From Lama guanicoe (lineage: Eukaryota): 64,000 bases of DNA. Positions 2,919-64,000 of this stretch are shown piece by piece. Numbering within the stretch: position 1 is the first letter of the stretch; each line of letters begins with the position of its first letter. The DNA lies in NCBI GenBank assembly GCA_013239625.1, contig MU053156.1, positions 250,467 to 314,466 on the forward strand, written 5' to 3'. The notes beneath the pieces were generated by a model that worked only from the letters and a program-made list of their open reading frames with translations, did not search any database and had not been told where the DNA came from. A program made the translations under genes and the position numbers.

Positions 2919-3527
<609 letters not shown>

Positions 3528-9390: not shown

Positions 9391-11924
9391 GGCGCCCGCG
9401 CCGCGCGCCCCCTTACGCCGGTCTTCCGCGCGGGGCGCCCCGCCCCCTTTTACGACAGCTCTGAACGCGCCCTGCCTTCTGTGTCATCCGGTGGGAGACT
9501 AGCTCCGCCCCTCCGAGGAGGCTCCCGCGTTGTCACCGCCCCTTACCCTGCTACCCGGCCCACACGACCTCAGAGGCGTAACCCGACAGCCTCCAGATCG
9601 CGAGATTTCTGAGAAGCCCTTCCCGGCCCGCACTGAGGCCCCGCCCCGCCCTGGAGTTTAGACCGTGGTCCGGAGAGCAGATGCCCAGCCCGAGTTGGGT
9701 ACCACTGATGGAGGGTAGGTCTTCCAGACTTTAGGGTTGATCTCAGCCTCTTGGGTGTTGCTGGGATTCAGTGTCTCTGTGGTTCGCTGGCTAAATTGAG
9801 GGTTTTTTGCTTGTTTTACCTCTTACGCTTTTTTTTTTTTAAAGTAACTGAGTCATTTTATCACAGAATACTATGTGGCTACTTAGTTGGAAAAACGTGT
9901 ATATTGCCCTAAATTGGTAAATTTAAGCTGTTGTAAAAAAAAAACTGTTGTAAAAAACTACTTCATAGTTGTGTTTACCTGTCTTTTAACTGACAGTCAA
10001 GCCTGATTCTTTCAGAGGGAAAACATGAGTTCCATTTATCTGCTAACACTTCAAATTGAAGGTCTTGATGTTATTCTGATTGACTTGAAGAGACATCTGC
10101 AGTATATGGATGTTTGGGGACATAATATTAAATAAATGATGTTTGTGAATTTTGTTACGTTAGGTGGCTTGGCTAAATATCTTCCTATAACTGTATATGG
10201 ATTTCATTTTTCAAAAACCACATTTGCCTTTACGCTAGGTTGTAAACACTCTTTATAATGCATAAAGCATGTTTTCCCTTATGTTAAATCTTTTATAACA
10301 TTTTGTATTTACATATTGTTGGTCTGTGATTATTTAAACCAGAATTTGTTAAAATATGTATATAGATAGAATACATGTGAAATAGGTTGGTGTTTATCTT
10401 ATAAACATGCATAAAGGAGGATCACAAATTATTTTCCTGTGCTTAAGCACCTTACGCCAGAGTTTGGTATGAGACGCTACTTTCTGTTTTCGAACAAATG
10501 AATTATGTATAGTCTGTGTTTTCTGCAAGCTCTATATTGTAAACTACATTCCAGACAACTACTGACTGTTATGTTTTTAGTAGTCTCTAGTTTTATATGT
10601 GACTTTTGTCCTGAAAGTAGTAAAGCCATATAGACATGTGCAAAACTAATATCATATTTGTAAATATTGAGTATGTAATATAGAAATCAACTGCGTATTT
10701 AACTGGTCTGGAACCTTCAGGGGATTAATGCAAGAAATTTGAAACAAAGATTTTAATGAACTGGTATTCAAAAGACACCAATAAATGTAGTTAAGACATT
10801 TTAGCCTCCTTGACATTGTTCCATGAATGTGGAATATTTTTCTGTGAATTTAGGTCTTAATTACTCTCAACAAGCTATTGTAGTTTTCAGTGTACAAGAC
10901 TTGTATTTTTTTTCCTTGCCTCTATCAGATGCTGATTCAGAATGTACACGACCTCCTGGAGGACCTTGCCCCTACCCTGCCATGTGCTGCCACTTAGAAG
11001 GCCTGTGAAGTCACCATAAGGTTTTGTCCTTTACTTGATTCTTAATTCTTTAGAATTTATCATTTTACTCTCATAAATGCCTGTTGTTCTTGTAACAAAT
11101 CTTTTAAAAATGAAAATATTGTACTTTAGATGAATAATGTACCATAGATGAATAATGAATGGATCACATGTAACATATGATTTTAATCCTTTTAGAATTA
11201 GTAGAGCAATAGACACATTATAAAAAATTGCAATACCACCTAAAGAAGAGATTTGCAAATGTCACCTACAGAGGTGACTGTCATGAATGGTTTGGTGCAC
11301 ATCTCTCAGTCTGTGTCTCTCTCATTCTGTCTCTCTGTTTCTGTCTCACACACTCATAATCAGATTCATTTACATCTATGTTGATTTCACACGTATGGGG
11401 TCATACAGATGGGACCCTCGATGCAGACGGTAGGTTCAGGTGCTTCCACCCTGAGGGCTCCCCTGACATCAGGTAGAGACCCTGCACCCACTTCTCCAGC
11501 TGTGCAGCATTCATTCATCCACATGGACCAGAACTGATGGATCCCATCCCTTCTTCACGAACATTAGTGTTGCTTGCAACTCCCTGTTCTTTCAGCCAGT
11601 GCTGTGATGAACATCTTTCTTTGAAAAGACATCTTTGAAAACTTGTGCAAGAACTTTGGTGGGGTCAGCTCGAAGGATCAGCACTGCTAGGAAAGGGATG
11701 CACCTGTGGAAACTTAATGGTCCTGCACCCTGTTCTCCCAGAGAGGAGTGTCTGTTCACTCTTCCCTCCAGGGGATCTGCTGGGGCCTCTGCCTCCTCAG
11801 GTTGTCACCAGACTAAAGACCTGTCAGTGTGATGTGACCAATGCTGTCTCCACAGTGTGTACATCTGCCTGAGCCCTCACCTGAGAGGTCAAGCATCTGT
11901 AACATACACTGGCCACCTGCATTG

Positions 11925-12305
11925 TCGATTTCAGGAGTAAATCTTTTAGTTCTTCAACATTGAGCATGATGTTTGCTGTGGGTTTTGCATAATGCTCTTT
12001 ATCATATTGAACACATTTCCTTTTACTTTCTTGAATATTTATGAACATGAAACATCACTGGATTTTGTGTAAAGTTTTTTCTGCATCAGTTGATATAACC
12101 ATGTCTTTTTACGTCACTTAGTGACTGGTGTATTATATTGCTTGGTTTTAATATGTTGAAAAACCTGGAATTTTGGTGAAGAGACGCTTGTAGTGCATAA
12201 TGCTTTTAATGTGCCTTTGGTTTCATATTGCTATCATTTTGTGGAGGATTCTTGCATGCATATTTAGGAAGAATTCTGGTCTGTAGTTTTCTTAACATGT
12301 GTTTG
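11925..12305 (-). mobile_element. L1 ORF2 fragment
   Basis: Antisense L1 motifs ttgagcatgatgtttgctgtgggtttt and ttttctgcatcagttgatat. Confidence 0.7.
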
Positions 12306-12319
12306 TGTGATTTGATTAG

Positions 12320-12685
12320 ATTGGGGTTGGTATCAGTGGCTTAGAGGCTTGGGGCTCGGGCTGAGGCGGGCACTGGTGCTGCAACTGGGGCTGGGTTAAG
12401 GGTTTTGGCTATGGTTATGATTCACTGTTAATAGGGTTGGTTATGGCTTCCAGTTTTGGCTATCTGGTCTTAGTCATGGATTCTGGTTCTGGTTTATGGT
12501 TTCCAGTTTCTGATTTCAGGTCTCAGGTTTGGGCAAGGGCTCAGGGTTAAGGTCTAGTGGCTAGAGTCTGGGCTCAGGGCTCCACTTGGACTTGGAATAG
12601 GGTTTGAGGATTGGGATTATACATCCTGCTAGTATACACTGGGTTGGGGTTAGGGGTTAGGGTTAGGATCAGGAGTAGGGGCTTA
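12320..12685 (+). repeat. Degenerate G/T-rich hexamer array, telomere-like
   Basis: Periodic GGGTTR/GGGCTC/GGTTCT-type units with perfect TTAGGG at 12650 and 12657, followed by TTAGGA. Confidence 0.55.
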
Positions 12686-12696
12686 ATAGTTAAGAA

Positions 12697-14535: not shown

Positions 14536-15014
14536 GTACCTGGTTGGTGGCCAGTCTGGCGCCACTGTTTCCTGCTCCAATTTTTTCCCTTGAAGGTGGG
14601 CAACCAGGACCCGTGAGCATGGGCCTGCAGTGGCCTGGGCAAACCGTGTGCCATGGGCCTGTTCCTGGTTAATGCAGGGCGGACTGAGGCCAGGGGACTC
14701 CCCCTGCTGCCGGCTGGACTTTATCTCTGTGCCCCTGTGGGGCCCTGAGTCCTCTCCCCTGCCATTGGGCTCTCATGGGACCAGTGATGGTCACCTGGCA
14801 CCAGAGGCATCTGCGACTCAACCCCAGGTTTCTGCCCAGCCCAGTCTTTGAACCTCTGTGACTTCCCTGCCAGCCCTAAGGCTTGAGAGCCATACCCGCT
14901 TCCGTCTGTTGGGAAGGCCTTTCCAGCTTAGCACTCTCTTGCTTCTCCCTCCTGGTTGTTACTGAATTGGTTGAGCCGGGGCCAGGACCCCTTGCCTAGG
15001 CCAGGAAGATTCTT

Positions 15015-15550
15015 TTTCCGATCAGATTCTCACAGCTGAGACAGATGAGACAGATGCTGAGACTGGAAGAGCACGAGCTTTATTCAATGGCCAAAGACTG
15101 GCAAAGTGGTAACCTAGCTCGCAAATAAAACATCTCAACCCAACTCGGTTGCAGACACCAAATATATAGGGGGGTCAAAGTGAAAGGTCTGCGAGGGTGC
15201 ATGGAGATTGGAAAGAGTGGGAGGAATATTAATGACTTAACAGGGATGTGGTTGGACCTGGCACTGATGCAACTCCTTTTCAATCCTTGTATGGGACTTT
15301 TGGGTTGTTGTCGTGGCAATTGTCAACTGTCATGGTGCTGGTGGGTATGTCATTTATCATGCTAATATATTACCGTGAGTATGTAATAAGGCTCAAGGTC
15401 GACTGGAAGTCAAATCTTCTGCAGTCTTGGGCCTAGTTGGTTGTAATAAGTTTTTGTGTTTTTCTCAATGCAGCTTCTTCCTAAAACATAGATAAGAGTA
15501 ATTGGGTTCCATTCAAGGAAGGGGCAGGGGTATGAACCTGGGGCAAAAGA
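15015..15550 (-). mobile_element. ERV LTR
   Basis: Minus-strand AATAAA (tttatt near 15080) and TATA-like box near 15165; LTR-like length and composition. Confidence 0.55.
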
Positions 15551-15559
15551 GTGATATTT

Positions 15560-17250
15560 CAACATTTTGATCTATCTTGTGCCTTTTCTGTTGTATGAAA
15601 AATTCTGAAGTTGTATGATTTTGAAAAAAAATCAAAATTGCATGTGTTTTTAAAATTAAACTTGAGAGTCTACAGTCTTTAGGAATATTCACTAGCTACT
15701 TAGAACTCCTTATTTGATATAAGTGGGACAAATCTCAGACAATGAGATTTTTGTCTGGTTGCATTGTGTAACGTCTTCTGAGGTACCAGAAGACATTTGA
15801 TATTTCTGCTGTCTTAGCAAAGGACTTTCCACTCACATATGTTTCCCTGACCATGCCCTGCATTTTATGTTTGTTTAGAATCCTTTTTTTCCAGGGGGAG
15901 GTAATAAAGGTTATTTTGGGAGATACAGTTAAACAAAATTAAAATCATGTACATTAGCAACATAACTCAACATCCTTAACTTGGTATAAGAGTAACACAT
16001 TTTCTTGCTTTCCTGTATTCTGTTAAATCACCATAAGCTAACAGGTAAGCTGAATTTCATCTTCACTGTTTTGCTTATGCTCTGATGCCAAACCAAACTT
16101 TTCATAAGTTTCTTTGATCTCTGAGTCCATCTCATCATCAATATCATCCAAGTATGTATCACCAGCCCCTGATAAATCTGTTCCATTTTCTTTTTAATCT
16201 GGAAAAAAAAAGTCTTCTCTTTTAAGTAATTCTCAATATTTCCCTTGATAATCTGAATCAACTGCAGGGAAAGGAATGCCATCAGATGTGTAGGATTTTG
16301 GTTCACTCATAAAATAGTCTCATCTTCAGGTGCTGCTTCTCTGTTGAGGTTGCATGGATTCTACCCCAGTTACTTGAGCAGAGTTCTACAAGATTCTTGA
16401 GCATCTGATTTACATCTCTGTGGCCATTTGCATCTAGGATGACGCTTTTCAATTCTTTACATAATTTCTTGGATACCAATCTTTCCTTTTTCCTTCCAGT
16501 ATCTTCCCAGGTGACCCTGTCAACTTCAGTAACAGTACTGCACACATTAAGTTGTTGTCCAGAGGGTTAGAAAAAAGGGCATCCAGCATCTCCTGAAGAG
16601 GACCTGCTGTCATAACCTGGTCCATTTGTTCCCTTGACCTCCAGGTTAAGATAAATTTCTTCCAATAAGAGTAAAAATGCATGGAATCATTTTCAAGTCA
16701 CTTCATTTTTTTTTTGCATCTTGTTTCTTGACTTCATAATAATTCTGATATCTTTAAAGTAGGAATTGGTGGAAACTGCCACTCTCTGAAAGTTGCCAGT
16801 TGCTAGGTCTCATGTAAGAGGATTTGAGATAGACGTGGCCTGTTTTGTTTTGTTTTGTTTTGTTTTGTTTTGTTTTGTCATGGCCTGTTGATACATGACT
16901 TCTCCATGTTCTTGCAGAACATCATCTATTGTAACACAGCCATTCACAGTGTCTGCAAACCATTCAGTTTCAGTTTCCAAACCTATGAAATGGTTTGTAA
17001 GATGACTGAAAAAGTCCTGAACATATTCATACAGAGTGGGATAATCCTGACAAGCATCCTCATAGGATTCTGTATAATTAGAGGAACAAATTAGAGGGTA
17101 AAATTCGGGGCATTCACAGACAGCTTTGACATGAATAAGGAGCCACAACCACCCGGGGCTTGGCCAGCGCTGACCCCGAGTTCTGCCGTGGCGTGTCAGC
17201 CTGTGAACTCAGTTCGTTCCCAGGAGGGCTCTCTTACAGGGTGGTTCTCA
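15560..17250 (-). pseudogene. PAIP1: Processed pseudogene of poly(A)-binding protein-interacting protein 1
   Basis: Intronless with several frameshifts. Peptides PEFYP..SSNYTESYEDACQDYPTLYEYVQDF, LDALFSNPLDNNLMCAVLLLKLTG and VILDANGHRDVNQMLKNLVELCSSNWGRIHATST match recalled PAIP1. Ancestral stop at 16065-16063, followed by probable 3' UTR down to ~15560. Confidence 0.92.
16841..16878. repeat. (TGTTT)n microsatellite inside the PAIP1 pseudogene
   Basis: Directly visible; flanked by a 9-bp direct repeat TGGCCTGTT. Confidence 0.9.
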
Positions 17251-17429
17251 GCGAGAAGCGCCTATAGTCCGTTTCTAAATTTTAGTATTTTATGTTATCT
17301 GGAGCGACAGGGAATTGCCCAAGTCCTGGCCCCTTTTTGTTTAATGGTCCTTTTAGCTGTTTCTCTCTCTCCTTTTTGCCATTTAGTTTAAGCAGCAAGG
17401 AGGCAGCAGCCAGGAGACACTCAGGACTT

Positions 17430-18620
17430 TCTGGAAATCTTAACTAGTTCACCCAATGCTTGGGCTCATTTTGAATTTTCCACATTACTGTAGGAACACT
17501 TTTACTAAACTTTCTGACACGATATAACAAAGACCCTCTTTCCTCTAGTTTGTAGTCAGATTTTTTGATTCTGCCCTTTAAGTCCTCACCAACAGCCTCC
17601 TCAAAATATGGACTTCTGTTGATAGTACGTTCACACCAAGTCAAGCTTTCACTGACACTTCTGAAATTCTTTTCGCTTTCTCCCGCTGCCTGATACCAAA
17701 GCTACTCCCACATTTTAGGTTTTTGTTATGACAACCCACTGCTATAGGTAACAAAACCTGTATGAATTATGTAATGCTGCTTAACAAATTACCATGCGGT
17801 TTGTCAACTTAGAAACACTTACGTTCTCCCACAGTTTCTGTGGGTTCAGTATCTGGGAGGGGGTTAGCTGGGTGGTTCTGATTCATGACCTCTCATGAGG
17901 TTGCAGCCAAGTCATCATCATTATGGTCTGGTCCTGGAGGATCTGCCTCTAAGGTGAGTGTTACTCCTTTGCCTGGTACATTATTGCTGGTGGAGGGCAG
18001 TTCCTCCTGGTTCCCTGCGTGTGTTTGCTTGCGTGTGCTCAGTGTGTGGCTCCAGGCAGCCCCCCGAGTCTGTGAACCGAGAGGGACAGCAAGGAGGAAT
18101 ATCCTGTGCTTTACACCTGTTCTCCAAAGTTCCAACCATCACATGCTTTAAAATTTTTATTTTTAGTTTTTAACACCTTTACTGTGGTATGGTTCCTGTA
18201 CAGCAAACTACACATATTTCAAATGTACAATCTGATGAATTTTGATAGATGTATGAACCCGTGAAACCACCACCACAATAAAGACAGCTACCATTTCCAT
18301 CACTCCCCAAGAAGTGCAAATTTTGAGCTCCTGATTTATCCCTTCCCACCCCGCTTACCCCCTGGTAACCATAAGTTTGTTCTCTATGTTTGTGAGTCTG
18401 TTTCTGTTTTGTCATTAAGTTCATTTGTGTCCTTTTTTTTTTTTTAAGATTTCACATATAAGCGATATCATATAGCATTTTTCTTTCTGTTTCTGGCTAT
18501 TTCACATGACTTTTTGTTTGTTAAATGCAAAACTCCAAATTCAGCCCACACTCCAAGGTAGAGGAATTAGGCTCCCCCTCTTGAAGAAATGATCAAGGAA
18601 CTTGTGGGCCTATTTAAACC
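17430..18620 (-). mobile_element. MaLR (MLT1-type) LTR plus internal fragment, interrupted by L1 3' pieces at ~18160-18505
   Basis: MLT1 motifs taacaaattacc, cacagtttctgtggg, ttagctgggtggttctg and ctcatgaggttgcag. Confidence 0.65.
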
Positions 18621-19107
18621 ATCAAGCAGGACCATTTTATATCTCTTTCCTCAAGGGTCACAGTCTTTTCTGCCTGATGTGCAGTTTCTGAAAACACTTG
18701 CTTCATATACTTGGTCACTCTTCTAGTTGCCGATGGCAACGGGCTAGTCTCCTGCTGGCTGTATCAGAGATCTCAGCGTACTGCTTTGGACCTTACGTGC
18801 AGATTTTCTTCTTTCTGGCTTCAATTTCCTCACCTTTAAAGTGAAAATTTTTGACATAAGAAGAGACAGCAACAGAAAGATATTGTTTTGCTCTCTGCTT
18901 CCATTCCCAAAGCATTCAATTGTTTCCTTATTTACCTTTGAGTCTCCTTAGACTTGGGAAGAGAATGTTAAGTAGCAGCAATAGTCTACTTTATCATATA
19001 AATTATCTGCCCTTTTATCGTACAAATTATCTAACATTTGACTCTGGCTGCCTACTGCCTAACACAGGCCCAGGCATTACAACAGGCACCAATAGAAGTG
19101 TGAACAA

Positions 19108-19715
19108 CTCCTGGGCATATATCCAGAGGGAACTTTAATTTGGAAAGACACCTGCACCCCAATGTTCATAGCAGCACTATTTACAATAGCCAGGATATGG
19201 AAACAACCTAAATGTCCATCAACAGATGGCTGGTTAAAGAAGTTGTAGTATATTCATACAATAGGATACTTCTCAGCCATTAAAAAAAATACAATAATGC
19301 CACTTGCAGCAACATGGGTGGACCTGGAGATTATAATTTTAAGTGAAGTAAGCCAGAAAGAGAAAGAAAAATACCCTATGATGTCACTTATATGTGGAAT
19401 ATTTTTTAAAAAGACAAATGAACGTATTTACAAAACAGAAACAGATACAGACATAGAAAACAAACTTACAGAAATGAAGCGGGGAAAGGGAGTGGAAAGG
19501 GATAAGTTGGGAGTTTGAGACTTGCAGATACTAACTGCTATATATACAAAAAAAAATAAGGTTCTACTGTAAAGCACAGGGAACTATATTCAATATCCTG
19601 CAGTAAGAATATATGAAAAGGAATATATGTATGCATATGTATGAATGACCTGTTATGCTGTGCACCAGAGATTGACACAGCATTGTAAACGGACTATACT
19701 TCAATTAAATAAAAG
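19108..19715 (+). mobile_element. 5'-truncated L1 (ORF2 end, 3' UTR, A-rich tail)
   Basis: MPLAATWVDLEIIILSEVSQKEKEKY L1 ORF2 C-terminal peptide; ends gactatacttcaattaaataaaa. Confidence 0.9.
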
Positions 19716-19989
19716 TGTGAATGACTCGGTACTGCTCTCTTTCTCTGACTTGTACTAGCTCTGGAATGTGAGCACAAGGAATAGGGCAATACAGAAGTAC
19801 GACAGGGGCTGGGACGCTGGCTCAGGGAGATGTAGCTCTGGAAAGGTGTGTGCAGCTCACGTCTTACTGTTAAAGAAAACTGATTATGGTCCGGACGCCG
19901 ATACTTCTCCATTTGTGTGCTCTATGGAACCATGTTTGGGAAGTATTGGAAAGGGGCTCCCAGGCCCCATTTGATACTTTCACACTTGT

Positions 19990-20420
19990 AGATGTCTAAT
20001 GAAAAAAAGCACAACCTAAAAGTTGAGAATTATGTTTTATTTGGGGATGTGGCTGAGGACTGTAGCCTGGAAACAGCTCCTCGTGTAGCTCTGAGGAACT
20101 GTTTCAAAGAGGTAAGGGAGGAGCCAGGTTATATAAGAGTTTTTGTTGAAAAAAAAAGAATTTGAACATTACAATATTATTGCTAATAATGAAAAACATA
20201 CACTTCAGGTTAAGGATTTTAGTGTTTGTCTGTGTATGGGAAGATTCAATAATCTGGGCTCATTGAAATTATTCCTTTGATATGCACCTTAACTGTCTAG
20301 GGTCAGTATCTTGGTTTTTCTTATTTTTTTAAATCCTAAATTCCCCTCAGGGTGCACCTTTGGGAAGGGGCTGCTGATGTGGCTGATGGCTTGATGGAAG
20401 CCTAATCTGTTGTCTACATG
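19990..20420 (-). mobile_element. ERV1-type LTR
   Basis: Minus-strand poly(A) signal and TATA; motif gctctgaggaactgtttcaaagaggtaagggaggagccagg. Confidence 0.6.
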
Positions 20421-41006: not shown

Positions 41007-41037
<31 letters not shown>

Positions 41038-51709: not shown

Positions 51710-54700
51710 TTTTATTTTTTTTTAATTGTGAACACTTAAAATGTGAGCTGTTCTGTCTGAACAAAATTTCAAGTATACACTATAATATTATTAAATACAA
51801 GCACTATGTTTTACAACAGATCCCTAGAACTTCTTCCCCTTGCATAATTGAAATTTTATAGTCTTAAAAAAAAAACACCCATTTTCATCTCCCTCCAGCC
51901 TTTGGAAACCACCATTTTACACTCTGCTTCTACGAATTTGACTACATTAGGTATCTCATATGTGTGGAATCATACATTACTTTGTCATTCCATAGCTGGC
52001 TCATTTTACTCAGTATAATGTCCTCCAGGTTCATCCTGGTTGCTGTACATGGCAGGGTTCCCTTCTTTTCAAAGGCTGAGCAATATTCCAATGAAAGTAT
52101 ATACCATAATTTCTATATCCATTCATGTGTGAGTGGGCGTTTATGCTGCATTCATATCTTGGCTATTGCAAATAATTATGCAACGAACATGGGAATGAAA
52201 ATATCCTTTGGGGGCTCCTGACTCCACTTATTTAGGCTGTATACTGAGAAGTGGGATTGCTGGGTCATATAGTAATTCTGTTTTTAATATTTTGAGAATC
52301 ATAGTGTTTTCCATAGCAGCCAGGCCATTTTACATTCTCATCAACAGCGTACAAGGTTTCCAGTTTCTCCACAGCCTCTCCAACACTTTTCTTCTGTTCT
52401 TTTGATAACAGCCACCCTAACGAGTGTGAAGAGCTGTCTCACTGTCTTCATCTGCATTTCCCTGACGGTTAGTGATGCTGAGCACATTTTCTTACACCTG
52501 TTGGCCATGTGTATGTCCTCTTTGGAAAAATGTCTATTCAAGATTTTGCTCATTTTTAACTGGGTTATTTGTTTTTTGTTACTGAGTTGCAGGAGTTTCT
52601 TATATATTTTGGATATAAACACCTTATTGAATGTAAGGTTGGCAAGTAGATCCTCCCATTCTCTCAGGTTGTCTTTTCATTTTATTGATTCTTTGTGCAG
52701 AAGCTTTTAGTTTGATACAGTTTCACTTGTGTATTTGGAGGTTTGTTTCCTGTGCGTTTGGTGTCATATGCAGGGAATATTTGCCAAGGCCAGTGTCAAA
52801 AAGTTTCTCCTGTATGTTTTGTTCCAGGAGGTTTATAGTTTCAGGTCTTACATTTAAGTCTTTAATCTATTTTAAGTTGATTTTTACTTACAGTGCAAGA
52901 TAAGGGCCCAGTTTCATTCTCTGAATGTGGATATTCAGTTTTCCCATCACCCTTTGCTGAAGGGTCTACGCTCCCCGCCTTGTGTGTTCTTTCCCCCTTG
53001 TTGAAGATCAGTAGATTACATACATGTAGGTTTATTGTCAGTCTGTTTTGTTCCATTGATTCATATGACTATCTCTAAACCAGTCATACAGTTTTGATTA
53101 CTGTAGTTTTGTAATATGTTTAGAAATCAGGAAATATGATGTGTCCAACTTTGTTCTTTCTTAGTATTTCTTCAGGTGTTAAGGATTTTTTTCTAGTTCT
53201 GTAAGCATTTTTGACTGTCTTTCTATATCTGTAAAAAAATGTCATTGTGAATTTGATGGGAATAGCACTGAATCTGCGGATTGCTTTTGGTAGTATGAAC
53301 ATTTTAACATATTAGGTCTTCTGATACATCAATATATATTTCCATTTATTTCTGTCTTCTTTTGTTTCTTTCTTCAACATGTTGCAGTTTTCATGGTACG
53401 AATCTTTCACCTCCTTGGGTAAGTCTAATCCCAATTATTTTGTTGACTTTGATGTTAGTGTGAACAGGATTGTTTCTTTAATTTCCTTCTCAGATGGTTC
53501 ACTGTGTGTATAGCAATCAATTTTTGCATATTGATTTCAAATCTTACAATTTTATTGGATTTGTTTATTAGTTCTAACACTTTTTTATGAGGCCTTATGG
53601 TTTTCTACATATAAGACCATTTCGTCTGCAAACAGGGTTATGATTACTCCTTTACCAATTTGGAATTCTATTTCTTTTTTTCTTCTTCTTCTAATTGTTT
53701 CGGCTAGGATTCCCAGTACCTTGTTGCACAGAAGTGGTGAGAGGGAGCACTGAGGCCCATGCCTTGTATCCCTAGTTTGTTAAGAGTTCTTACCATAAAA
53801 GAGAGTTGAATTTTGGCAGATGCTTTTTTCTGCATCTATTGAGAAAGTCACGGGATTTTTCTGTCTTATTCTGTTAACGTGGTGTGTCACATTACTGACT
53901 GTGCTTGCTGAACCATGCCTACATTCAGGGGGGATAAGGCCCGCTTTTGATTATGGGGTGTGAGCCTGTTGACTTTGATGGGCTGGTATTTTGTTGAGAA
54001 GTTTTGCATGTATGTTCATTTCATCAGGGATATTGACCTATAACATTCTTCTCTTGTAACACCTTTGCCTGGCTTTGGTCTGTGGGTAACCCTGAGCTGG
54101 TAAAATAGTCTGGAACGATTATTTCTCCTTCAATTTGCTGCAGGCGTTTGAGAAGGAGTGGCAGTAATTCTTTTTTAAAATGCTGGCTGGAATTGACCAG
54201 TGAAGACATGTGGTCCTGGGGCTTTCTGTTTTTGGAGGCTTTTGATTACTGATGAAATCTCTGTACCAGTAATTAGTCTGTTTACATTTTATATTTCTTC
54301 ATTATTCAGTCTTTGTAGGTCGTATGTTTCTAGGAATTAATCCATTACTTTAAGGCTATGTAAGCTGTTGGCGTGTATTTGTGTATAGTATTCTCTTTTA
54401 ATCCTTTCTTATTTCTGTGATATCAGTTGTAGTTTGCTTTTATTTATTTGAATCATCTCTGTTTTTTCTTAGTCTAACTTACATCTGTCAATTTTGTTAA
54501 CTTTTAGAAACCCAACTCATTTTGATTTTTAAAAATATTTTTCTATACTCTGTTTTGTTTATTTTTGCTCCAAGTTTTATTATTTCCTTTCTTAACTTTT
54601 GGCTTAGGTTATTCTTCTAATTCAATAAGGTGTAAATTTAGGTGGTTTATTTGAAGTCTTTCTTCATTTTCGATGTAGGTGTTTATCAATATAATCTTCC

Positions 54701-55250
54701 CTCTGAGTAATGCCTCTGATGGATCCCATAAGTTTTGCTATGTTGCATTTTCATTTTCATTTCTGTTGACATTTTCTGATTTCCCTTTTGAACTTTACTT
54801 GGCTCCATTGTTTGGTAAGGAGCATGATGCTTAATGTCCACATATTTGTGAATTTCCCAGTTTTCCTTCTGTTGTAGATTTCTAGTTTCATTTCTCTGTG
54901 GTCAGAAAATGTATTTACAATAGCAGGATTTCAATCTTCTAAAATGTTGGTGACCTAACATGTGAAAGTTCTTTAAACCTGTCCATACTTTTATATATAA
55001 AGTGTGACTTGTCTACAACATGTAGTGGAGTCATGCTTTTTAACCCGATCAGTATCTCTCGTTCACAATGAATATTTGGCCCATTTAGTATTTCACAGGT
55101 TTGGATTTTAGACTGTTCTCTTATTTGTGTTCTGTTTTTATTCTCTGTTCTTTGTTCCCTGTTCCTTCTTTCCTGACTTCTTTTTTGAGTGGAGTACTTT
55201 TTCATACTTTATGTCATCTTCTCTTACTGCCTTTTTAGCTATTCCTCTCT
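51710..55250 (-). mobile_element. Older L1 (L1MA/L1MB-type), ORF2 and 3' UTR with poly(A) at ~51710
   Basis: Minus-strand ORF2 peptides ISKIYKKLLQL..LNRHFSKEDIHMAN and ILPKAIRRFSAIPIK; T-run at the left end. Confidence 0.92.
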
Positions 55251-56249
55251 TTGTTTCTTATGTCTGTAATTATTTAAATGTATGCTGGGCTTTGTGTATT
55301 TAAGAACAGTTGAGGTGGAAGTGAATCTTGGTTCCCTGTAGAAAGAGGCATGCCTCTTGCTCTTCAGGCCATGGGTGTGTAGAGACTGAGTCAATTTCTT
55401 TTGTAGTTTAGCTGAATCTGGTCTTTGTTTGTTTTGTTTGCTTTGTTTGTTTGACTTAGATCCTATTCTCCACTGTCTTCATAGGTTTTAAGCAGCATTT
55501 GTGGAGACTGGAGCAATCTTTAATACGTGTTGACCAGCCAGCAGCCCATTCCTAACTTCTTGTGCTTCAGGGCCATCTGTGCCCATCCGGCTGCTCCGGC
55601 CCCAGCTTTGCAGAGCCCTGGGGGATCCTCTCTGGGTCTTTCCCTGTCCCACTCTTCAGCCTAGCCACATGTAGCCGTTAGAAGTTGGTTTGGAGTTGGG
55701 CTGGATTCTCCTTCATCAGATCTGTGGCGTTTGCTCTTCTCCCACCGTAAGTCTCTTCTCTTCTAGGAAAGGCTTTTCATTTTCTAGAATTTAGTTAATT
55801 GTGGTTTCTTTAGTCCTCAACTCTCTGATGGGTTTTTAAAAAGCAGTGATTTTGTGGTTTGCCTGCCTGGCTTGTTCTTGATTTTTAGAGTAAGGGCAAT
55901 GGTCTCTTGCAAATTTCTACATTGTTCTTAGAAACAAAAATCCACTGACACTATTCTGAATAAATTCAGTAGTCTTAGGGATTTTAAAGGTTATATTGTT
56001 ATTTGTTGAAAAATGAGTTTCCAGAAAATCTCAGTGCACGTTAAGACAATTTATTGTTAAACATATTTTCTAAAGGGAGGCATAAATAATTTGCTTTTGA
56101 CTTATCTGAATAGGAGCAGGGAGTTAGGCCTGGGATTCTTTATCATGAGTGATCCCCACAGCTTTAATGAGCCGCGGTTACTGAGGAAGGACACCTGAGT
56201 TCACAGGTGCATCGGGCAGAAAAGAGGTTCGCCCCCCCTGCCCCGGGCT

Positions 56250-56432
56250 GGGGCAGAGGTTGGCACGCTGCCTTTGCAAAGGACCCCGTTGTAAAGCTTT
56301 AGGCTTCGTGGGCTTCTGTTACGTATTGTTACTTGGCTTTGTTTTTCACAGTCTTTAAAAATGAAAAAACGTTCATAGCTGAAGCTGTGTAAAAACAGAA
56401 TCTGGGCCAGGACGTAGTTTGCTGATCCCTGG
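56250..56432. mobile_element. MER58-like DNA transposon
   Basis: Terminal inverted repeats cagaggttggca ... tttgctgatccctg; internal ttaggctt. Confidence 0.6.
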
Positions 56433-56657
56433 GCTAGATGATCTTTATAGTCATTTTTGGTCTCAAAGTTATTTTGAATTTCTCTGAACTACTGTGCATT
56501 CGGAATAGTGATGTGTGAAAATACAGAGGCTCTTAACTATAAAGCATTCTTTTCAATAATGGCCTCAACGTATCATACATGTAAACATATTTGATGTTAT
56601 GTAGGCTTTTACATATTCCATCAGATTTAAAGGAAGTCCTTTCATCTTTCTTTTTAG

Positions 56658-56975
<318 letters not shown>

Positions 56976-57366
56976 TGAGATTAATTAGGCTTTGACGTGT
57001 TTACCCTTTTCTTTACAAAGTGGGGGTTATTTTAAAGTGTTTTTAAGGTTTGTTAATGGGTAGGGAAGAACTATTTTCCCTAAATCTGTTCTTTGTGGCT
57101 AGTAAAAAAAAAAAAAAGTCACCTCCCCCAAAGCTCCAACACTTAGTTATATGTGTCAGTAAATGCTGCTTGGGAACAAAACCAAAATTTTAAATTGTTT
57201 TTAAAATGAAAATACTTGGTCTACATGCTTGAGTTTTCCCGACATAACCAAACTTGGCTATATTTTAGTTCAGTGGTTGATGTGAAGGACCACAGAGAAT
57301 TGGATGCCTTTCTGGTATACTTTCGTGTTAATAGAAATTTTTTTGGTGACACAGTTCCAGTTTTAA

Positions 57367-57648
<282 letters not shown>

Positions 57649-57744
57649 TGATTGTGTCATTTATTCTACAGGGCCGTACCTTCCTCGTTTATAAGGCATT
57701 CTAATTTATTTCTGATTGAAGAAGCGCATCCTTGTTTAGAAATA

Positions 57745-57920
57745 GCTAACATGTATTGAGCGCATACCAGCCATTGCTCCAAGTGTTTTTTCCATGTTTA
57801 TTCATTTACTGCAGCAGCATTTTGAGCCTCACACAGTGTGGATTTTCATGTTACGTTGGGAACTGAGACTTCATGGGTTAAGTCACTTCCTGAGGCTCAT
57901 CTTAATTACTGCACTCTCTG
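57745..57920. mobile_element. MIR SINE
   Basis: atagctaacatgtattgagcgc ... ggaactgagacttc ... gttaagtcacttcctgagg. Confidence 0.65.
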
Positions 57921-60603
57921 CCTCCCGTGGCCTTTGATCACAGACAGGCCTAGATTCTGAATCAGAATCTGATTCTGAATTGTGGTTTGATTGTCACCTC
58001 TATGTTGTTTTGTTTCATTTTTTGTTTTGGAGGTTTTTTGTTTTTTAAAGCTGTTAAAGAGGATCTAGTTAAGTAAATTTTTTAAGGGGTGAAGCAGATG
58101 GTGGTAATAAAAATATTCATTAAATACCGTTTGTAAAATAATAAGTTAATTCATGCTGAGTACTGCATAGTGGTGTTTTATAACAAGAGGCCAGTATATT
58201 ATTTGATGAGTGAAATAAAACTGAAGTTGATGAACACCAACCCCCGTCCCCGGTGCAGAAATCTGCGTGTGCAGCTGTCTGCTCACGGTCACCAGCCTTC
58301 CTGGGCAAGCTTTCCTGGTTCTCCAGCCAATCTCTCTCTCCTGTTCTCTTTAATAATTGTTTCAAACCCTTCTTCTCCTCTTAGAAATCTTTGGTCTTGC
58401 CTTCTCTGTTCTCTCTCACTCATCACTGTGTAAGGAACAGTCTTAGGAAAGGAACTCCTCACTGTGTGTCACCAGCCTCCGTTTGTCCTGTCCATGTCTC
58501 TCCTTGTCTGCAGCCCCTGCTCGTCCCCGGGTCTCCCGTCAGAAGCAGAACCTTCCCCTGGCCCATGTCTTTCTCGCCCCACATTTCTGCTTCCTGTGGG
58601 CTCTGTCTTGTCCCCCTTACCAGCTCCTCAGCTCGCCCCAGCTGGGCTGCCTCCCGGCTCCAAGAGCTGCTCCTGCAGGGTCACCAGTGTTGGTCACGAG
58701 GTGCCCAGACGGCACAAGGTCACTTTGCTCTGTTCCTCACTCACATTGACAACACTGGCTTGCCCCTGCTCTTCGAAGCACTCTCCTCCGTCTTACTTGT
58801 CCCTTGTCCCACCCCGTCCCACCCCCACTGTCTCTTTTCTGGATTCTCCTCTTGCTCCCGCCCTGTGCCCCTCTCCCTCACCTGACACACTTCCTGGTCA
58901 CCTCGCAGCTCTAACCAGGGACCCTAGCAACTGTCCTGAGGCACATGACTTCCATCTTTATTCTTCCCTACATGTCACTCCTGAGCCTCATGCCTTTACT
59001 TCTAATCATTTACTGTCAGTATCGCTTTGAAAGGCTCCGCAACACAACACTCCAGATGCGGCCCATGAACTGCTGCCATCATTTCCACGTCCACCGCCGC
59101 CCTCCTGCCCTTACCTGTTCTTGGTGCAAATGGCCCTGAACTCACCCTTTTGCTCAGGTCGTACACCCGGCGCCTGGGGAGTTGATCCGGACTCCTCTCT
59201 CCCTCACGCCTACAGCGAATCAGAGGGTGGAGAGCGTGCGTTCTGAATAGCCTGTGTGTGTTTTTATTCTCCCCACCTCACTTCACCCCCTTGCGACAAC
59301 CATCTCTAGTTTATCTGATTAGAAAGACTATTCTGACTGGTCCTCCACCGTCCAGTTCCATTCACCAGTCCATGCCGTTCTCTTCTCTGCAGCCAAGTCA
59401 GTGTTCAGTCAAGCAGTCTGATCCAGCTCTTGCCCCTGCTTTCAGCCAGCTCTTGGCCTTCTCTCGCACTGAAAAATAGTTTAGACTCAGGGAGGTTACC
59501 GTGGCTCCGGCAGTCCGGCCCCTATGCAGGCCGCTCGTCCTCCTCTCTGGTCCTACTGGATGCTCTTCTCTTTTTGGAATATAAAATGTGTGTTCTCGCT
59601 CACGTTTCTCCCGTCATCTGCGCTCAGCCTGGAGTGCTCCTTCCTCTGTCCTTGCCTTGGTAACTACTGTGTATCCTGCGGGTCTTAAATACCACTGCCA
59701 AAGGCTTTCCCTGATTCTCTAGAACAACCTTCCTTCCTTTTTCTCTTTCTTCCTCTAAATACGGTAAACGCTGCAAACACACAAAACCATCCTGGGCGTA
59801 GCCCAAGCCACCTGGGCCCCCCGACCCCGCGTGTAACAGATGTCAGTGTTGTGCCTTATTTGCCTCAGCTCTTTTCTGATCTAATATTTGAATACTTGAT
59901 ACATTCACATGGTTTAAAAGTAAACATAAAAGAGGATTCAGTGAACAGTCTTCCCTTCTATGTCCTCTAGCCTCAATTTCTAAATTAATGTTACTAGTTT
60001 TATGTATCCTTTTTGAGATATTATATACACATGCAAGCAAATACAAATGCATATTCTTCACCTAACCCTTGTACACAGATGGTAGTGTATTACGCATACT
60101 GTTTCACACCTGGTTTTTCATTTTAACATGTTACACATATATTTAAAAAATTTATATGTATGTATATATGGATCTTTCTGTATCATTACATAGAGAGCTT
60201 TTTCATTCTTCTTGTTTTTTTAAGTCACAGTATTCCATTGTTTAGATATTCTGTAAGTCATATCAGTAGCTCATATTAGCTTATTTCAGTCTTTTTTTTA
60301 CTACCACAAATAATGCCATAATAAATAACCCTCTATATAAATCATCCGCACATGCAGTTTGTCTGTGATAAAAATTCCTGGACGTGAAATTGCTGGGTCA
60401 AAGAACAATGTGTTTGTCATTTTGTTAGCTGTTGTCAAGTTGCCCTCCATGTAGTTTTATCAGTTTAGCTTCCCAGTAGCAGAGTCCGGAGACACAGTCA
60501 GTGTGGTCACCTTTGGAGAAGTCTGAAATGAAAAATGGTGCTGGACAGAGTATAGTTATATTTTGTTCATTTCTTCTTATGCATGAATTTTGAGTAGCTT
60601 CAT

Positions 60604-60765
60604 TAATTTTTTTAACTTTTTTTAATTGAGTTATAGTCATTTTACAATGTTGTGTCAAATTCCAGTGTAGAGCACAATTTTTCAGTTATGCATGAACATA
60701 TGTACATTCATCGTCACGTTGTCTTTCGCCGTGAGCCGCCACAAGATCATGTATATATTTCCCTG
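60604..60765 (-). mobile_element. Short 5'-truncated L1 3' end with target-site duplication
   Basis: Poly(T) then L1 3' terminus; TGAGTAGCTTCAT duplicated at 60591-60603 and 60766-60778. Confidence 0.85.
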
Positions 60766-61649
60766 TGAGTAGCTTCATAATTTAAAAACCATTAGTGTTT
60801 TCTGAGAACTTTCTGTTTTTCTACTGGATTATTTTCAATAGTATTTCTGAAATTTTGATTCTGAGACCACCTTCATTGAGTAAATATTTAATGATCCGTG
60901 CTAGCTACTGGTGCTAAAGACATAGTTTTTGCCTTCCTAACGCTTACAGTGACACAGTAAATAAACAAAACCTAATGTAATAGAGAATAGCTGTTTGTTG
61001 GGTGGACTATATTAATTCAAGTAGGCCCAACTGATAGCAGATCAGTAGACCCCCAAAATCCGGTAGCTAAAGGAATAAAAGTACTCTTTTTTATGTAATA
61101 GTCCTGCATGGGTGTTCAGGTTAGTGGTGTGGCTCTCCCCTACCGTCCTGTGACTGCCCGTCCCCGAGGGCCTGGTTGTCTGCTGCCTCCAGCAGGCAAA
61201 GGACCTGGGAGGTAATTTAGGGGCCAGATCTAGCCATGACATAGGGACTTTCATTCATATTCTTTTGACTAAAACAGTCACATGGCCATGTCTTGTACAG
61301 GGGAGGCTAGTATATGGGGTGCAGTCATGTGCTCAGGAAGAAGAATATGTTTTTTGAGGACAACTAGTAGCCTCTGCTGCAGAAGTTGGGGCAGCATTAG
61401 CCGTGGTGGTGAGGGGAGACTCTGAAACTGAAGGGGTGAGGAAGAAGCATCCAAGCAGAAATTAGAAATCAGAGCATTCTAGGCAGAAGGAAACAATAAG
61501 GACAAATACCCTGAGGCATTTAAAAGATTTTGACCAGGTAGAGGAATGGAAGGAAGACCCTGTATAGTCGGAGCCCAGGTGGCTGGAGGGAAAGGTTGGA
61601 GAGATGAGCATTGTACAGATTGCGCAGGTTGCACATGGGTTTGGGATGG

Positions 61650-63240
61650 TTCTGTTTATCCATTCATTCATTGGTGGACACTTAGGTTGTTTCCATGTTT
61701 TGGCTATTGTAAATAATGCTGTAGTGAACATGGGGTACATGTATCTTTTGAAGATAGTATTTTTGTTTTCTTCAGATAAAGACCTAAAAGTAGAGTTGCT
61801 GGATATGGTCGCTTTGTTTTTAATTTTTTGATGAACCCCCGTACTATTTTCCACAGTGGCTGCCCCAGTTAATATTCCCACCAACAGTGGGAGTCCCTTT
61901 TCTCCACATCCTTGCCAACGTTTGTTATTTGCTGTCTTTTTGATAATAGCCATTCTAACAGGTGTGAGAGGATATCTTGTCATGATTTTGATTTGCATTT
62001 GCCTGATGACTGATGGCGTTGAACATCTGTTCTTGTACCTGTTGGCCATCTGTGTGTCTTCTTTGAAACATGTCTATTCAGATCTGCTCATTTTTTAATT
62101 GGATTGTTTGGGTTTTTGCAGTTGAGTTTTAGGAGCTCTTTATATATTTTGGATACTGGCCCCTTATCAGAGACACGATTTACAAATGTTTTCTCTGATG
62201 CAGTAGGTTGCCTTTTCATCTTGTTGGTTCCTTTGCTGTGCAGTAGTCTTTTAGTATGATGTAGTCCCATGTGTTTATTTTTGCTATTGTTGCTTTCGCT
62301 TTGGTGTCAGATTCAAAACATCATCACTAAGACCTGTGTCAAAGAGCTTACCACCTATGTTTTCTTCTGAGAGTTTTATGATTTCAGGTCTTAGGTTCGA
62401 GTCTTTAATCCATTTTGAGCTAATTTTGGGGTTTGATACCAGATAGTGGTTGAGTTTCATCCCTTTGTATGGCTGTCTAGTTTTCCCAGCACAGCTTGTT
62501 GAAGAGACTGTCCTTTCTTCATTGTATATTCTTGGTTCCTTTGTCATAAGTTAATTGATCATATATGCGTGGGTCTATTTCTGGGTTCTCTGTTCTGTTC
62601 CATTGATCTGTGTGTCTGTTTTTATGCTATACTCTACTGTTTTAGTGACTATAGCTCTGTATTATAGTTTGAAATCATAGAGCATGATGCTTCCATCTTT
62701 GTTGTTCGTTCTCAAGATTGCTCTGGCTATTCAGTGGTTTTTTTGTGGATCACAAATTTTAGAATTATTTGTTCTCTAGTTTTTTGAAAAAGACCACTGG
62801 AATTTTGCCATAGGGATTGCATTGAATCTGTAGATTGCTTTGGGTGGTTTGGACATTTTAACAACATTGATTCTTGCCATCTGCGATCATGGACTATCTT
62901 TCCATTTATTTTGTCTTCTATTTCTTTTATTAGTGTCTTGTTTTCAGTATACAGCTCTTTCACTTCCTTGGGTAAATTTATTTCTAGGTATTTTATTTTT
63001 GATGCCATTGTAAATGGGACTGTGTTCTTTATTTCTCTGTTTGATATTTCCTTAGTAGTGTACAGAAATGCAGCAGATTTCTGTTATTGATTTCATACCC
63101 CACAACCTTACTGAATTCATTTATTAGTTCTAACAGGTTTTTGATGGAGTCTTTATAATATCATGTCGTCTGCAAATAGTGACCATTTTACTTCTTCATT
63201 TCCAATTTGGTTGCCTTTTATTTCCTTTTCTTGCCTTGGG
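61650..63240 (-). mobile_element. L1 ORF2 fragment
   Basis: Minus-strand peptides REMQIK-like, YPMFTTALFTIAKTWKQPKCP and KIKYLEINLPKEVKELY. Confidence 0.92.
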
Positions 63241-63506
63241 CTCCACCTGGTCCCTTCGCTCTGCTTGGATTTTTATGTTGGCAGTTTCTCTCCTGTCATC
63301 ACTTTGGTCATTCAATAAATAATATCAGGACTGAATATTTTAGCTTTTAGTGAGGGGCTACGTAGTAATAACATTTTTTTTAATAAAACTCTTTTATACC
63401 TATTCTATAAAAGCCAGTGCTGTGGTGAGTGCTTGTCCAGCCCCGACCCTGCTGCCCCGCAGTGGTGAAGGGCAGCTTCCCCAGGCCTGGCTCTCTCTCC
63501 TGACAG

Positions 63507-63696
63507 AGACGCCATGGTTGGGGACCTGATGCCAGCCGGCATGGTCGCCCTGGTGGAGTGTCCCTCGTTCTCTTCCTCGGCACCCCCTTCCCACATGTCT
63601 GCCATGGCCAGTACCATGAATGGAGAGGAATGTGTGCTGGCTGTTGATACTGAAGACAGGCTGGATCCAAATCCATGGCAAGAAAAGACGGGGGAG
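63507..63696 (+). other. Unassigned exon-like segment with open frame
   Basis: Polypyrimidine acceptor ctctctctcctgacag|, donor GAG|gtaaaa. Frame DAMVGDLMPAGMVALVECPSFSSSAPPSHMSAMASTMNGEECVLAVDTEDRLDPNPWQEKTGE. GC-richer island between L1 pieces; parent gene not identified. Confidence 0.45.
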
Positions 63697-64000
63697 GTAA
63701 AAGCAGGTGGTAGAGCAATGAAGCAGTCTTAGATCAGGAAGGAAAAGGCAGCTGATTACTAGCTTATTGTAAAGTACATGAAAAAGGGTACAGGAATAGT
63801 CAGATGAAGAGGTGCACAGGAGGGTGTCTGTAAACGTCTGTGAGGTCAAGGTGGTAGGTGGTCTTGTTGAAATCGTCTGTATCTTTACTGATTTCTGTCT
63901 ACTTGTTCTATCAGCTGTTGCAAGTTGGGTTTTGAGATCCCAGCTGTCGTTGTGGATTTGTCTCCTTTTGACATTTCTGTCACTTTTTCCTTCACGTGTT

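Follow-up and report, generated by a model that had tools for sequence, protein, structure and literature searches.

Introduction

LCR22A drives the commonest human microdeletion syndrome, and the locus described here raises the question of whether the DNA on the 5' side of DGCR6 can become a duplication mosaic in a non-primate as well. Previous reports assign PRODH, DGCR5 and DGCR6 to the distal duplicon of human LCR22A and give USP18, TMEM191B, RIMBP3, PI4KAP1, GGT3P and FAM230 paralogues as LCR22A modules (PMC6724673), describe the LCR22A repeats as primate-specific (PMC8320366) and place a primate-specific synteny break at HSA22 17.03-17.14 Mb (PMC2681463).

The stretch analyzed, referred to as the window, comprises 64,000 nucleotides of the guanaco (Lama guanicoe) genome on contig MU053156.1 (C243 in our numbering). 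A sequence-only reading had described the 54 kb that follow the DGCR6 CpG island as a mosaic of fragments of unrelated genes, accumulated independently at the site of LCR22A. Duplicon boundaries and donor loci were mapped against the animal's own genome, as that reading had suggested, and four blocks with sharp junctions were obtained. The paralogue search scored the best candidates only, so the copy numbers given below are lower bounds. The assembly is fragmented (55,231 contigs) and a number of the duplicates are represented solely by contigs of 0.2-2 kb, which makes the copy number and placement of the blocks uncertain.

Results

The DGCR6 anchor and the change in base composition

The first 9.5 kb of the window are filled by the 3' end of PRODH and by DGCR6, with PRODH tail to tail behind DGCR6, and are followed by the first repeated stretches:

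682..1143, + strand: last coding exon of PRODH (Pfam Pro_dh PF01619, E 1.2e-15), single copy
2916..9483, - strand: DGCR6 (Pfam DGCR6 PF07324, E 2.9e-39 and 1.3e-23)
9705..10818: first stretch with a copy elsewhere, 77% to C866:2861309-2862407, the only match among 39 candidates scored
10817..11926: dispersed repeat, more than 15 copies at 77-81% identity
12540..12680 (core 12644-12668), + strand: degenerate TTAGGG-like stretch of about four degenerate hexamers

Exon 1 of DGCR6 lies within 8896-9483, together with the CpG island (CpG o/e 0.86 and GC 0.64 over 8501-9900), and another exon is found inside the ORF at 2916-3527. No paralogue of DGCR6 or PRODH was found in the same genome among the 39 candidates scored. 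The shift from GC-rich to AT-rich sequence noticed earlier was confirmed, GC dropping from 0.58 over 8-10 kb to 0.38 over 10-12 kb, then remaining at 0.30-0.46 over 16-56 kb; the values are 0.579 for 1-9700 and 0.370 for 21086-54965. The low GC is just the composition of the EYS intron DNA brought into the site. In its other copies, the repeat at 10817..11926 directly follows the repeat found here at 20462-20842.

The telomere-like array of the sequence-only reading did not survive closer inspection. It comes down to a pair of neighboring 12-mers at 12644-12668, each with a single mismatch (2 one-mismatch TTAGGG 12-mers observed vs 0.45 expected), at least two matches are reached in 6 of 100 shuffles, and TRF detected no array at these positions. 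An interstitial telomeric sequence was rejected on these grounds, there being no TTAGGG run beyond chance and no TRF array. The G-rich strand of the tract reads outward from DGCR6.

A patchwork of copies in the 5' flank of DGCR6

Beyond the anchor genes, 49,438 of the 54,201 bases of the interval 9.8-64 kb (91%) are covered by four blocks, each also found at other places in this genome: a PAIP1-bearing member of a 6.5-kb family, a 34-kb copy of 5' EYS, an 8.3-kb copy of 3' DYRK1A and the start of a further block, here called block X. The intron-containing fragments of EYS (- strand) and DYRK1A (+ strand) recognized in the sequence-only reading were thus found again, two exons each, with intact parents on C4280 and C4389. 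Both are duplicates inside a larger mosaic, with parents on other contigs, so the objection that they might be the sole copies in the genome, lying in conserved synteny, fails. Among the further orphan exon-like pieces listed in that reading, one could be identified, as an intronless PAIP1 pseudogene (16071-17209, - strand).

The stretch from 9.8 to 64 kb had been said to hold no intact gene, and this agrees with our results. It contains 389 stop-to-stop ORFs of at least 50 aa; 281 of them were run against Pfam, and only an L1 domain was above the curated cut-off. In Rfam a single tRNA-like match was obtained, which is the head of a SINE. The view of the DGCR6 5' flank as a patchwork of old, dead copies of PAIP1, EYS and DYRK1A pieces largely holds, and these pieces are all non-functional; for annotation, EYS-, DYRK1A- and PAIP1-like matches here are pseudogene fragments, not genes. 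Along C243 the mosaic reaches 114 kb or more, copies being present on C5737, C5022, C8444, C7458 and C3571, and its sub-blocks are found again on C3763, C8444, C7458 and C3571 as well as on many small contigs.

The 6.5-kb block and its PAIP1 retrocopy

14537..21087: 6.5-kb multi-copy duplicated block, colinear copies on ten contigs
16071..17209, - strand: decayed, intronless PAIP1 processed pseudogene inside the block (PDB 3rk6_A (PAIP1), E 2.3e-14)

The ten copies of this block (C5737, C4002, C3806, C6768, C8664, C3031, C6804, C7158, C7070 and C4817) are 81-88% identical to it, and none of its ORFs of at least 50 aa contains a Pfam domain, including those of transposable-element proteins. When P0125 was used in tblastn, aa 21-375 fell within 1.1 kb, with stops and frameshifts, while the true PAIP1 is laid out exon by exon on C4027:300104-326822. 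The piece is therefore a processed pseudogene, being intronless and colinear with the mRNA of a source gene that has introns. The same 174-aa open stretch of the PAIP1 copy is present in three of the four block copies compared, namely those in which an ORF reaches 150 aa or more (L027-L029), implying that the decay of PAIP1 preceded the amplification of the block. In this respect the intronless PAIP1 copy resembles processed pseudogenes caught in segmental duplications. The three copies of the block on large contigs of known length end 12-22 kb from a contig end, a hint, but no more, of a subtelomeric or pericentromeric zone.

The EYS block

21086..54965, - strand: copy of the 5' EYS locus (introns and two exons), colinear with C4280:1254492-1288370
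27668..30588: 2.9-kb stretch without counterpart in the parental EYS locus; the sole other matches scored are on four small contigs, at 89-92%
33098..33220, - strand: EYS exon following the one at 34139..34326, its frame still open (tblastn queries P0002 and P0003)
34139..34326, - strand: EGF-like EYS pseudo-exon disrupted by a 1-bp deletion; in the parent (L011:3590-3784) the exon is open and bounded by AG/GT splice sites
37261..41000, + strand: L1 fragments inside the EYS copy, many copies at 72-83% (Pfam Tnp_22_dsRBD at 39218-39445)

The copy and the intact locus differ by p = 0.107 (K2P 0.117) over 28,449 aligned sites, corresponding to 89.3% identity at these sites and 84-90% by BLAST. 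The two exons are separated by an intron of about 0.9 kb. The one at 34139-34326 is frameshifted, whereas its C4280 counterpart is open between its splice sites and shows 70% identity to 'Protein Eyes Shut [Manis pentadactyla]'; the following EYS exon of the parent locus falls outside the duplicon. The stretch at 27668..30588 is either an insertion in the window copy or a loss in the parent. A third EYS copy, on C8021, shares 88-91% identity with the window and 84-85% with the parent, and runs along the parent past the point where the window copy ends.

The DYRK1A block and block X

54966..54970: junction J2 between EYS-derived and DYRK1A-derived sequence (in sensitive BLASTN the C4280 match ends at 54965, and those of C4389 and C3763 begin at 54971)
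54971..63236, + strand: copy of 3' DYRK1A (introns and two exons, last coding exon missing), 93.5% to C3763 and 92.9% to C4389
56658..56966, + strand: DYRK1A exon (PDB 9krj_A residues 414-516, E 4.2e-56)
57443..57570, + strand: next DYRK1A exon (tblastn with P0007)
63237..63259: 23-bp filler of junction J3, at the site of a deletion of 9.5 kb (C3763:60179-69712)
63260..64000: start of block X, 92% to C3763:59430-60179, running on beyond the window end

The intact parent lies on C4389, with exonic parts 97-100% identical to P0007, and a second dead copy, longer than that of the window, is found on C3763. The three sequences are related in a star-like manner, with K2P of 0.061-0.064 among them and 235, 227 and 214 private sites. 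In the window the intron between the two exons measures 476 bp. Relative to the parent, 9 of the 103 residues of the exon at 56658-56966 are changed in the window and 11 of 103 in C3763, and dN/dS between these two dead copies is 1.25. The match of block X proceeds to C3763:50001 and on to 27719, at 90-91% identity and over at least 30 kb. On C3763, too, the DYRK1A piece adjoins block X, and C243 and C3763 stay colinear from window position 54971 up to 94 kb or beyond.

The junctions in the assembly sequence

In the assembly sequence the boundaries of homology are sharp, at 21086, 54965/54971 and 63236/63260. An assembly chimera, in which diverged copies that are themselves real had been wrongly joined to each other and to DGCR6, could be suspected from the fragmentation noted above, with many tiny contigs matching the same blocks, and from the L1 fragments close to J2 (53.7-55.2 kb). 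Such an error appears improbable given that the window contains no N, that the three junctions are abrupt changes of homology and not overlaps in a common repeat, that the DYRK1A-block X adjacency is seen on a second contig diverged by 6-9%, and that J3, with its filler and a short similarity at both ends, resembles a deletion. As independent data for the duplication reading as a whole, 0.33-0.42 of 676 31-mers sampled from 50000-56500 were present in 20 of the 23 runs listed (8 studies, 6 organism labels); by our own arithmetic, parents at 87-93% identity would be expected to have only a few percent of such 31-mers in common.

Segmental duplication or mobile elements

Segmental duplications are conventionally defined as stretches of at least 1 kb and at least 90% identity that are not transposable elements. 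All four blocks (EYS, 34 kb; DYRK1A, 8.3 kb; PAIP1 block, 6.5 kb; block X, at least 30 kb) exceed 1 kb and have a second genomic copy. At 92.9-93.5% and 90-91%, the DYRK1A block and block X are also above the identity threshold; the older EYS block (84-90%, or 89.3% of aligned sites) and 6.5-kb block (81-88%) are duplications below it. For the EYS and DYRK1A blocks an origin in ordinary DNA is evident from exons and introns colinear with intact genes. Transposable elements that Pfam misses could account for, or carry, the 6.5-kb block and the other multi-copy stretches.

This leads to the alternative that the mosaic reflects mostly the traffic of large or composite mobile elements (ERV-like, or L1 with transduced flanks) that carried the gene pieces as passengers. 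At least ten copies of the 6.5-kb block end at the same base, dispersed repeats lie on its flanks, the block carries a retrocopy, and L1 pieces are frequent, all of which would fit. Nevertheless, the EYS (34 kb) and DYRK1A (8-20 kb) blocks consist of introns and exons colinear with single-copy genes and exist in only 2-3 copies, and no RT, gag or env was found in 130 ORFs of 9.7-26 kb or in 105 ORFs of at least 100 aa from the 40 kb downstream, so that we consider this explanation very unlikely. The region 5' of DGCR6 is probably a real segmental-duplication acceptor zone, in which a mosaic was put together in several steps and composite blocks were then recopied elsewhere.

Discussion

Order and age of the events

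The mosaic was probably built stepwise, by pasting genomic pieces from other chromosomes side by side and then recopying the composite blocks. The EYS piece would have been duplicated first and then copied once more, since the window is closer to the C8021 copy than to the parent, and since that copy runs past the window breakpoint. Later, the DYRK1A fragment would have been joined to block X, giving a composite that is now on C243 and C3763 and that, in the window, appears to abut and truncate the EYS copy. A 9.5-kb deletion would afterwards have taken out the last DYRK1A exon in the window.

The blocks differ in age (K2P 0.117 for EYS vs about 0.06 for DYRK1A). With neutral rates of 1-2.2e-9 per site per year, the EYS divergence amounts to roughly 27-58 My. 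This high divergence, along with the description of the DGCR6 flank as an old synteny edge in PMC2681463, would fit a mosaic that is older than the lineage, present next to DGCR6 in many laurasiatherians and not lineage-specific. That reading seems rather unlikely to us, the DYRK1A and block X events being about half as old. In calling the mosaic 'independent' or 'lineage-specific' we infer from divergence and from the literature only.

Relation to human LCR22A

By hg18 coordinates, the break at HSA22 17.03-17.14 Mb would fall between USP18 and DGCR6. By position, the site matches LCR22A, as had been proposed: it borders DGCR6 on the 5' side, and PRODH follows DGCR6 in tail-to-tail orientation. 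The placement of the primate-specific synteny break in human LCR22A therefore makes it a positional analogue (PMC6724673, PMC2681463). Human LCR22A is likewise found directly 5' of DGCR6, with PRODH behind, and is also a duplicon mosaic with pseudogene fragments of unrelated genes and sub-blocks recopied to other sites. An orthologue of LCR22A by content was rejected: the pieces identified come from PAIP1, EYS and DYRK1A, none of them a module named in PMC6724673, and DGCR6 and PRODH are unduplicated. In human these two genes are inside duplicon SD22-5, whereas here they are single copy, and human LCR22A copies are at least 97% identical, compared with 84-94% here. With such identities the copies described here are old and therefore unlikely drivers of recurrent rearrangement today.

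The mosaic is also similar to the pericentromeric and subtelomeric duplication zones of primates (two-step duplicative transposition), in which duplicons from several chromosomes stand side by side with sharp junctions, gene fragments are truncated and contain introns, and composite blocks are secondarily duplicated. It differs from them in that neither the window nor the C243 end has centromeric satellite or terminal telomere repeats; the far end of C243 is ordinary sequence, free of both, and thus nothing places the zone at a chromosome end.

As to the cause, the DGCR6 flank may have bounded a synteny block of the ancestral eutherian karyotype, with human LCR22A arising independently at the same edge. 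It is possible, at a low level of confidence, that the flank has been a duplication acceptor from the time when it formed the edge, perhaps the physical end, of the small ancestral eutherian chromosome 12b-22b; LCR22A and the guanaco mosaic would then be independent outcomes of one ancient fragile site, and the short, worn TTAGGG-like tract at 12.6 kb could be a remnant of that end. If such an independent pile-up in a non-primate is true, it would favor the view that the old synteny edge itself, not a particular primate sequence, attracts duplications, and the guanaco locus would offer a natural second example for studying breakpoint reuse.

Structure of the DGCR6 flank

On sequence evidence, the 54 kb that follow DGCR6 in the window would represent an old mosaic of segmental duplications made up of pseudogene fragments, genuine and ordinary in kind, the interest of which is its position. 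The assembly comprises 2.05 Gb in 55,231 contigs, and the contig analyzed here (C243) is 547,888 bp long; the window corresponds to C243:250467-314466 and has no N. To map the blocks, the window was searched against its own genome, the best places were fetched and local alignments were done. This self-alignment to the source genome, which had been proposed in the sequence-only reading, revealed four blocks with copies elsewhere, covering 49,438 of the 54,201 bases of the flagged interval. The features identified, in window positions, are the following:

First 9.5 kb, + strand: last coding exon of PRODH (Pfam Pro_dh, E 1.2e-15)
8896-9483, - strand: ORF of DGCR6 exon 1 (Pfam DGCR6, E 2.9e-39)
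First 9.5 kb, - strand: another exon of DGCR6 (Pfam DGCR6, E 1.3e-23)
14537-21087: Block 1, a 6.5-kb unit with colinear copies on at least 10 other contigs (81-88%)
21086-54965: Block 2, EYS copy, colinear with C4280:1254492-1288370 on the opposite strand
34139-34326, - strand: first of the two EYS exons in the window (tblastn with two mammalian proteins)
33098-33220, - strand: the next EYS exon (tblastn with the same two proteins)
54971-63236: Block 3, DYRK1A copy, with other copies on C4389 and C3763
56658-56975: DYRK1A ORF, matching residues 414-516 of human DYRK1A (9krj_A, E 4.2e-56)
63260 onward: Block 4 (block X), colinear with C3763:60179 down to 50001 (K2P 0.082-0.084)

Just past DGCR6 exon 1 the GC content drops from 0.58 to 0.38, so that the claimed transition from GC-rich to AT-rich sequence is indeed seen; the shift is explained by the GC of the EYS block (0.370), which matches that of its parent (0.355). 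The EYS fragment on the - strand and the DYRK1A fragment on the + strand that had been described were also found, each with two exons. The telomere-like array of the same reading was not borne out and should be removed from the description. An own-genome search with positions 1-10900 yielded no paralog of PRODH or DGCR6, returning only an old dispersed repeat in a DGCR6 intron and a 77% match for 9705-10818.

The EYS and DYRK1A copies

Block 2 differs from its parent on C4280 by p = 0.107 (K2P = 0.117 over 28,449 sites; 0.106 without CpG sites). The parent contains an open 65-aa exon flanked by AG and GT sites. Four of five candidates passed when this exon was searched against proteins of 115-2000 aa, a range that excludes full-length EYS; among these four, the lowest E-value corresponded to a fish crumbs homolog (41% identity) and the highest identities to a dolphin hypothetical protein (76%) and to "Protein Eyes Shut [Manis pentadactyla]" (70%, with 98% coverage). 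With the dolphin and M. pentadactyla proteins, tblastn located three consecutive exons on C4280, the third of which lies outside the duplicated stretch, and the first EYS exon of the window carries a 1-bp deletion. A 2.9-kb stretch of the block (27668-30588) is absent in the parent, its only other matches being four tiny contigs (89-92%). These contigs, along with C7115, C5716, C2627, C1906, C8021 and more, resemble the window (88-92%) more closely than the parent does. C8021 (21.6 kb) remains colinear with the parent over more than 4 kb beyond the point where the window copy stops; a third EYS copy therefore exists, and the one in the window was truncated later.

Some minor elements were observed within this block. 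There is a weak match to the Dppa2/4 DCR domain (E 0.009, below the curated cut-off) in a 109-aa ORF inside the 2.9-kb stretch (27914-28240, - strand), and a weak NCD3G match, also below the curated cut-off, at 34557-34730. Positions 25622-25789 have the look of a tRNA-derived SINE, with a tRNA-like stretch (Rfam RF00005, 33.6 bits) and, directly after it, an A-rich repeat of 34-bp period.

Among the protein matches of the Block 3 ORF that were examined, all the named ones were DYRK1A or DYRK1B. Judging from its exons, which are 97-100% identical in their exonic parts to a rodent DYRK1A protein from residue 69 on, the C4389 copy is the DYRK1A gene. The copy on C3763 is decayed, with at least seven exons and many substitutions, while that of the window consists of two exons only and is devoid of the last coding exon. 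The three copies are mutually equidistant (K2P 0.061-0.064; 235, 227 and 214 private differences). In the common exon, 9 of 103 residues differ from the gene in the window and 11 of 103 in C3763, and dN/dS between these two dead copies is 1.25. C3763, of 298 kb, carries its decayed DYRK1A copy at 67856-90000 and beyond, and part of block X occurs there twice, at 50-60 kb and again at 250-254 kb. The contig has the appearance of a second zone of duplication.

Block 1 and the PAIP1 retrocopy

Most copies of Block 1 share the same terminal base. An endogenous retrovirus was considered as the identity of this 6.5-kb unit and rejected, given the lack of RT, gag or env domains: the region from 9.7 to 26 kb contains 130 ORFs of 50 aa or more, and Pfam matched none of them at E ≤0.01. 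Like the other multi-copy blocks, the unit may be either a duplicon or a mobile element of an unrecognized kind. The ORF at 16813-17208 (- strand) matched PAIP1 in PDB (3rk6_A, E 2.3e-14), and residues 21-375 of a primate PAIP1 protein could be fitted by tblastn into 1.1 kb of the window, in a reading interrupted by stops and shifts of frame. The true PAIP1 is found exon by exon on C4027:300-327 kb, and intronless copies are present on C7158, C4216, C4002, C3806, C4817, C6804, C8664, C5737, C6768, C7070 and C4001. Three of the four copies fetched (L027-L029 of L027-L030) contain an ORF of 150 aa or more, which in each case is the same 174-aa stop-to-stop stretch; this common stretch argues that the PAIP1 retrocopy was already dead by the time Block 1 spread. 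A functional family of PAIP1-like retrogenes, hinted at by an "open frame 306-375 aa", was also considered and dropped, the fetched copies having only the common 174-aa stretch, without a plausible start.

The distance to the contig end was obtained for three Block 1 copies located on large contigs:

C8664:2408245-2413351: 12 kb from a contig end
C5737:22431402-22438083: 16 kb from a contig end
C3806:8494825-8501474: 22 kb from a contig end

These positions suggest either that scaffolds break at the family or that the family lies near chromosome ends.

Junctions and age of the mosaic

Homology switches abruptly at the start of the EYS block (21086) and at the EYS/DYRK1A joint (54965|54971), without overlap in a shared repeat. 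The joint between DYRK1A and block X (63236|63260) is the scar of a 9.5-kb loss, with a 23-bp filler and short similarity at both ends: the corresponding segment of C3763 (60179-69712) is absent from the window, and with it the last DYRK1A exon and the original DYRK1A/block X joint. Colinearity of Block 4 with C3763 extends further, to C3763:27719.

Since the copies are 6-12% diverged from their parents, they cannot be parental reads that were mis-assembled. The adjacency of the blocks appears supported by the N-free sequence, the sharp junctions and the recurrence of the DYRK1A-X order on a second contig. In addition, 20 of the 23 runs listed (8 studies, 6 organism labels) contained 0.33-0.42 of the 676 31-mers sampled from 50000-56500, whereas by our own arithmetic parents at 87-93% identity are expected to share only a few percent. 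DNA nearly identical to this region is thus present in independent data, a result that is uninformative on the junction itself.

Ages were estimated as K/2µ with assumed neutral rates (1-2.2e-9 per site per year) that were not measured in this species. On this rough estimate the EYS copy would be around 27-58 My old and the DYRK1A copies around 14-31 My. These different ages do show that several events took place one after another, rather than only one.

Comparison with human LCR22A

At the distal edge of human LCR22A lies duplicon SD22-5, formed by PRODH, DGCR5 and DGCR6; the remaining modules carry USP18, TMEM191B, RIMBP3, PI4KAP1, GGT3P and FAM230 paralogs (PMC6724673). None of these is among the pieces identified in this work, and here both DGCR6 and PRODH exist as single copies, in contrast with their location inside a duplicon in human. 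The absence of common modules among the identified pieces and the single-copy state of both genes argue that the zone is a positional analog of LCR22A, rather than a homolog.

The interval 17.03-17.14 Mb of HSA22 (hg18) presumably lies in LCR22A, between USP18 and DGCR6. Kemkemer et al. place a primate-specific synteny break there; in their scheme, 22q from 17.14 Mb belongs to 12b-22b, an ancestral chromosome of small size, and the proximal part (14.4-17.03 Mb) derives from a different protochromosome (PMC2681463). LCR22 duplicates are reported to be missing in mouse and to have arisen at about the time when New and Old World monkeys diverged (PMC8320366). No account of a duplication in the camelid DGCR6 flank was apparent among the papers listed by a literature search. 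Together, the break, the LCR22 age and the present mosaic mark the flank of DGCR6 as an old edge of synteny, where unrelated duplication mosaics would have been built in two lineages.

Sequence beyond the window

Past the window, C243 was sampled in stretches up to 114 kb (window coordinates) and in its last 10 kb. Downstream there are a fragment of L1, copies on C5022, C3763 and C5737, a multi-copy stretch of around 9 kb (C5183, C4610, C8444, C2417 and others), further copies on C3763, C7458 and C8444 and, at 104-114 kb, copies on C3571. The last 10 kb are mostly unique sequence, with no satellite or telomere repeat.

A 137-aa ORF at around 85.6-86.0 kb (L006:1582-1992, - strand) matched Laminin_G_2 weakly (E 8e-4, below cut-off) and had no match in PDB; it is possibly another gene fragment of the mosaic. 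DUF5578 was likewise matched weakly (E 7e-4, below cut-off) at around 110.7-110.9 kb (L023:6659-6931, - strand), within a block colinear with C3571:96553-120778 (84-87%). Close to the contig end, a repeat of around 1.08 kb (L022:7775-8858) has dozens of copies genome-wide with 85-98% identity, and is apparently a young mobile-element family. Finally, an inverted pair of around 1 kb, 95% identical, is formed by L022:8950-9996 (C243:546838-547884) and C243:152192-153593. Its members, around 395 kb apart, bracket PRODH, DGCR6 and the entire mosaic, and could be either a repeat of young age or an inverted duplication through which the interval might be flipped.
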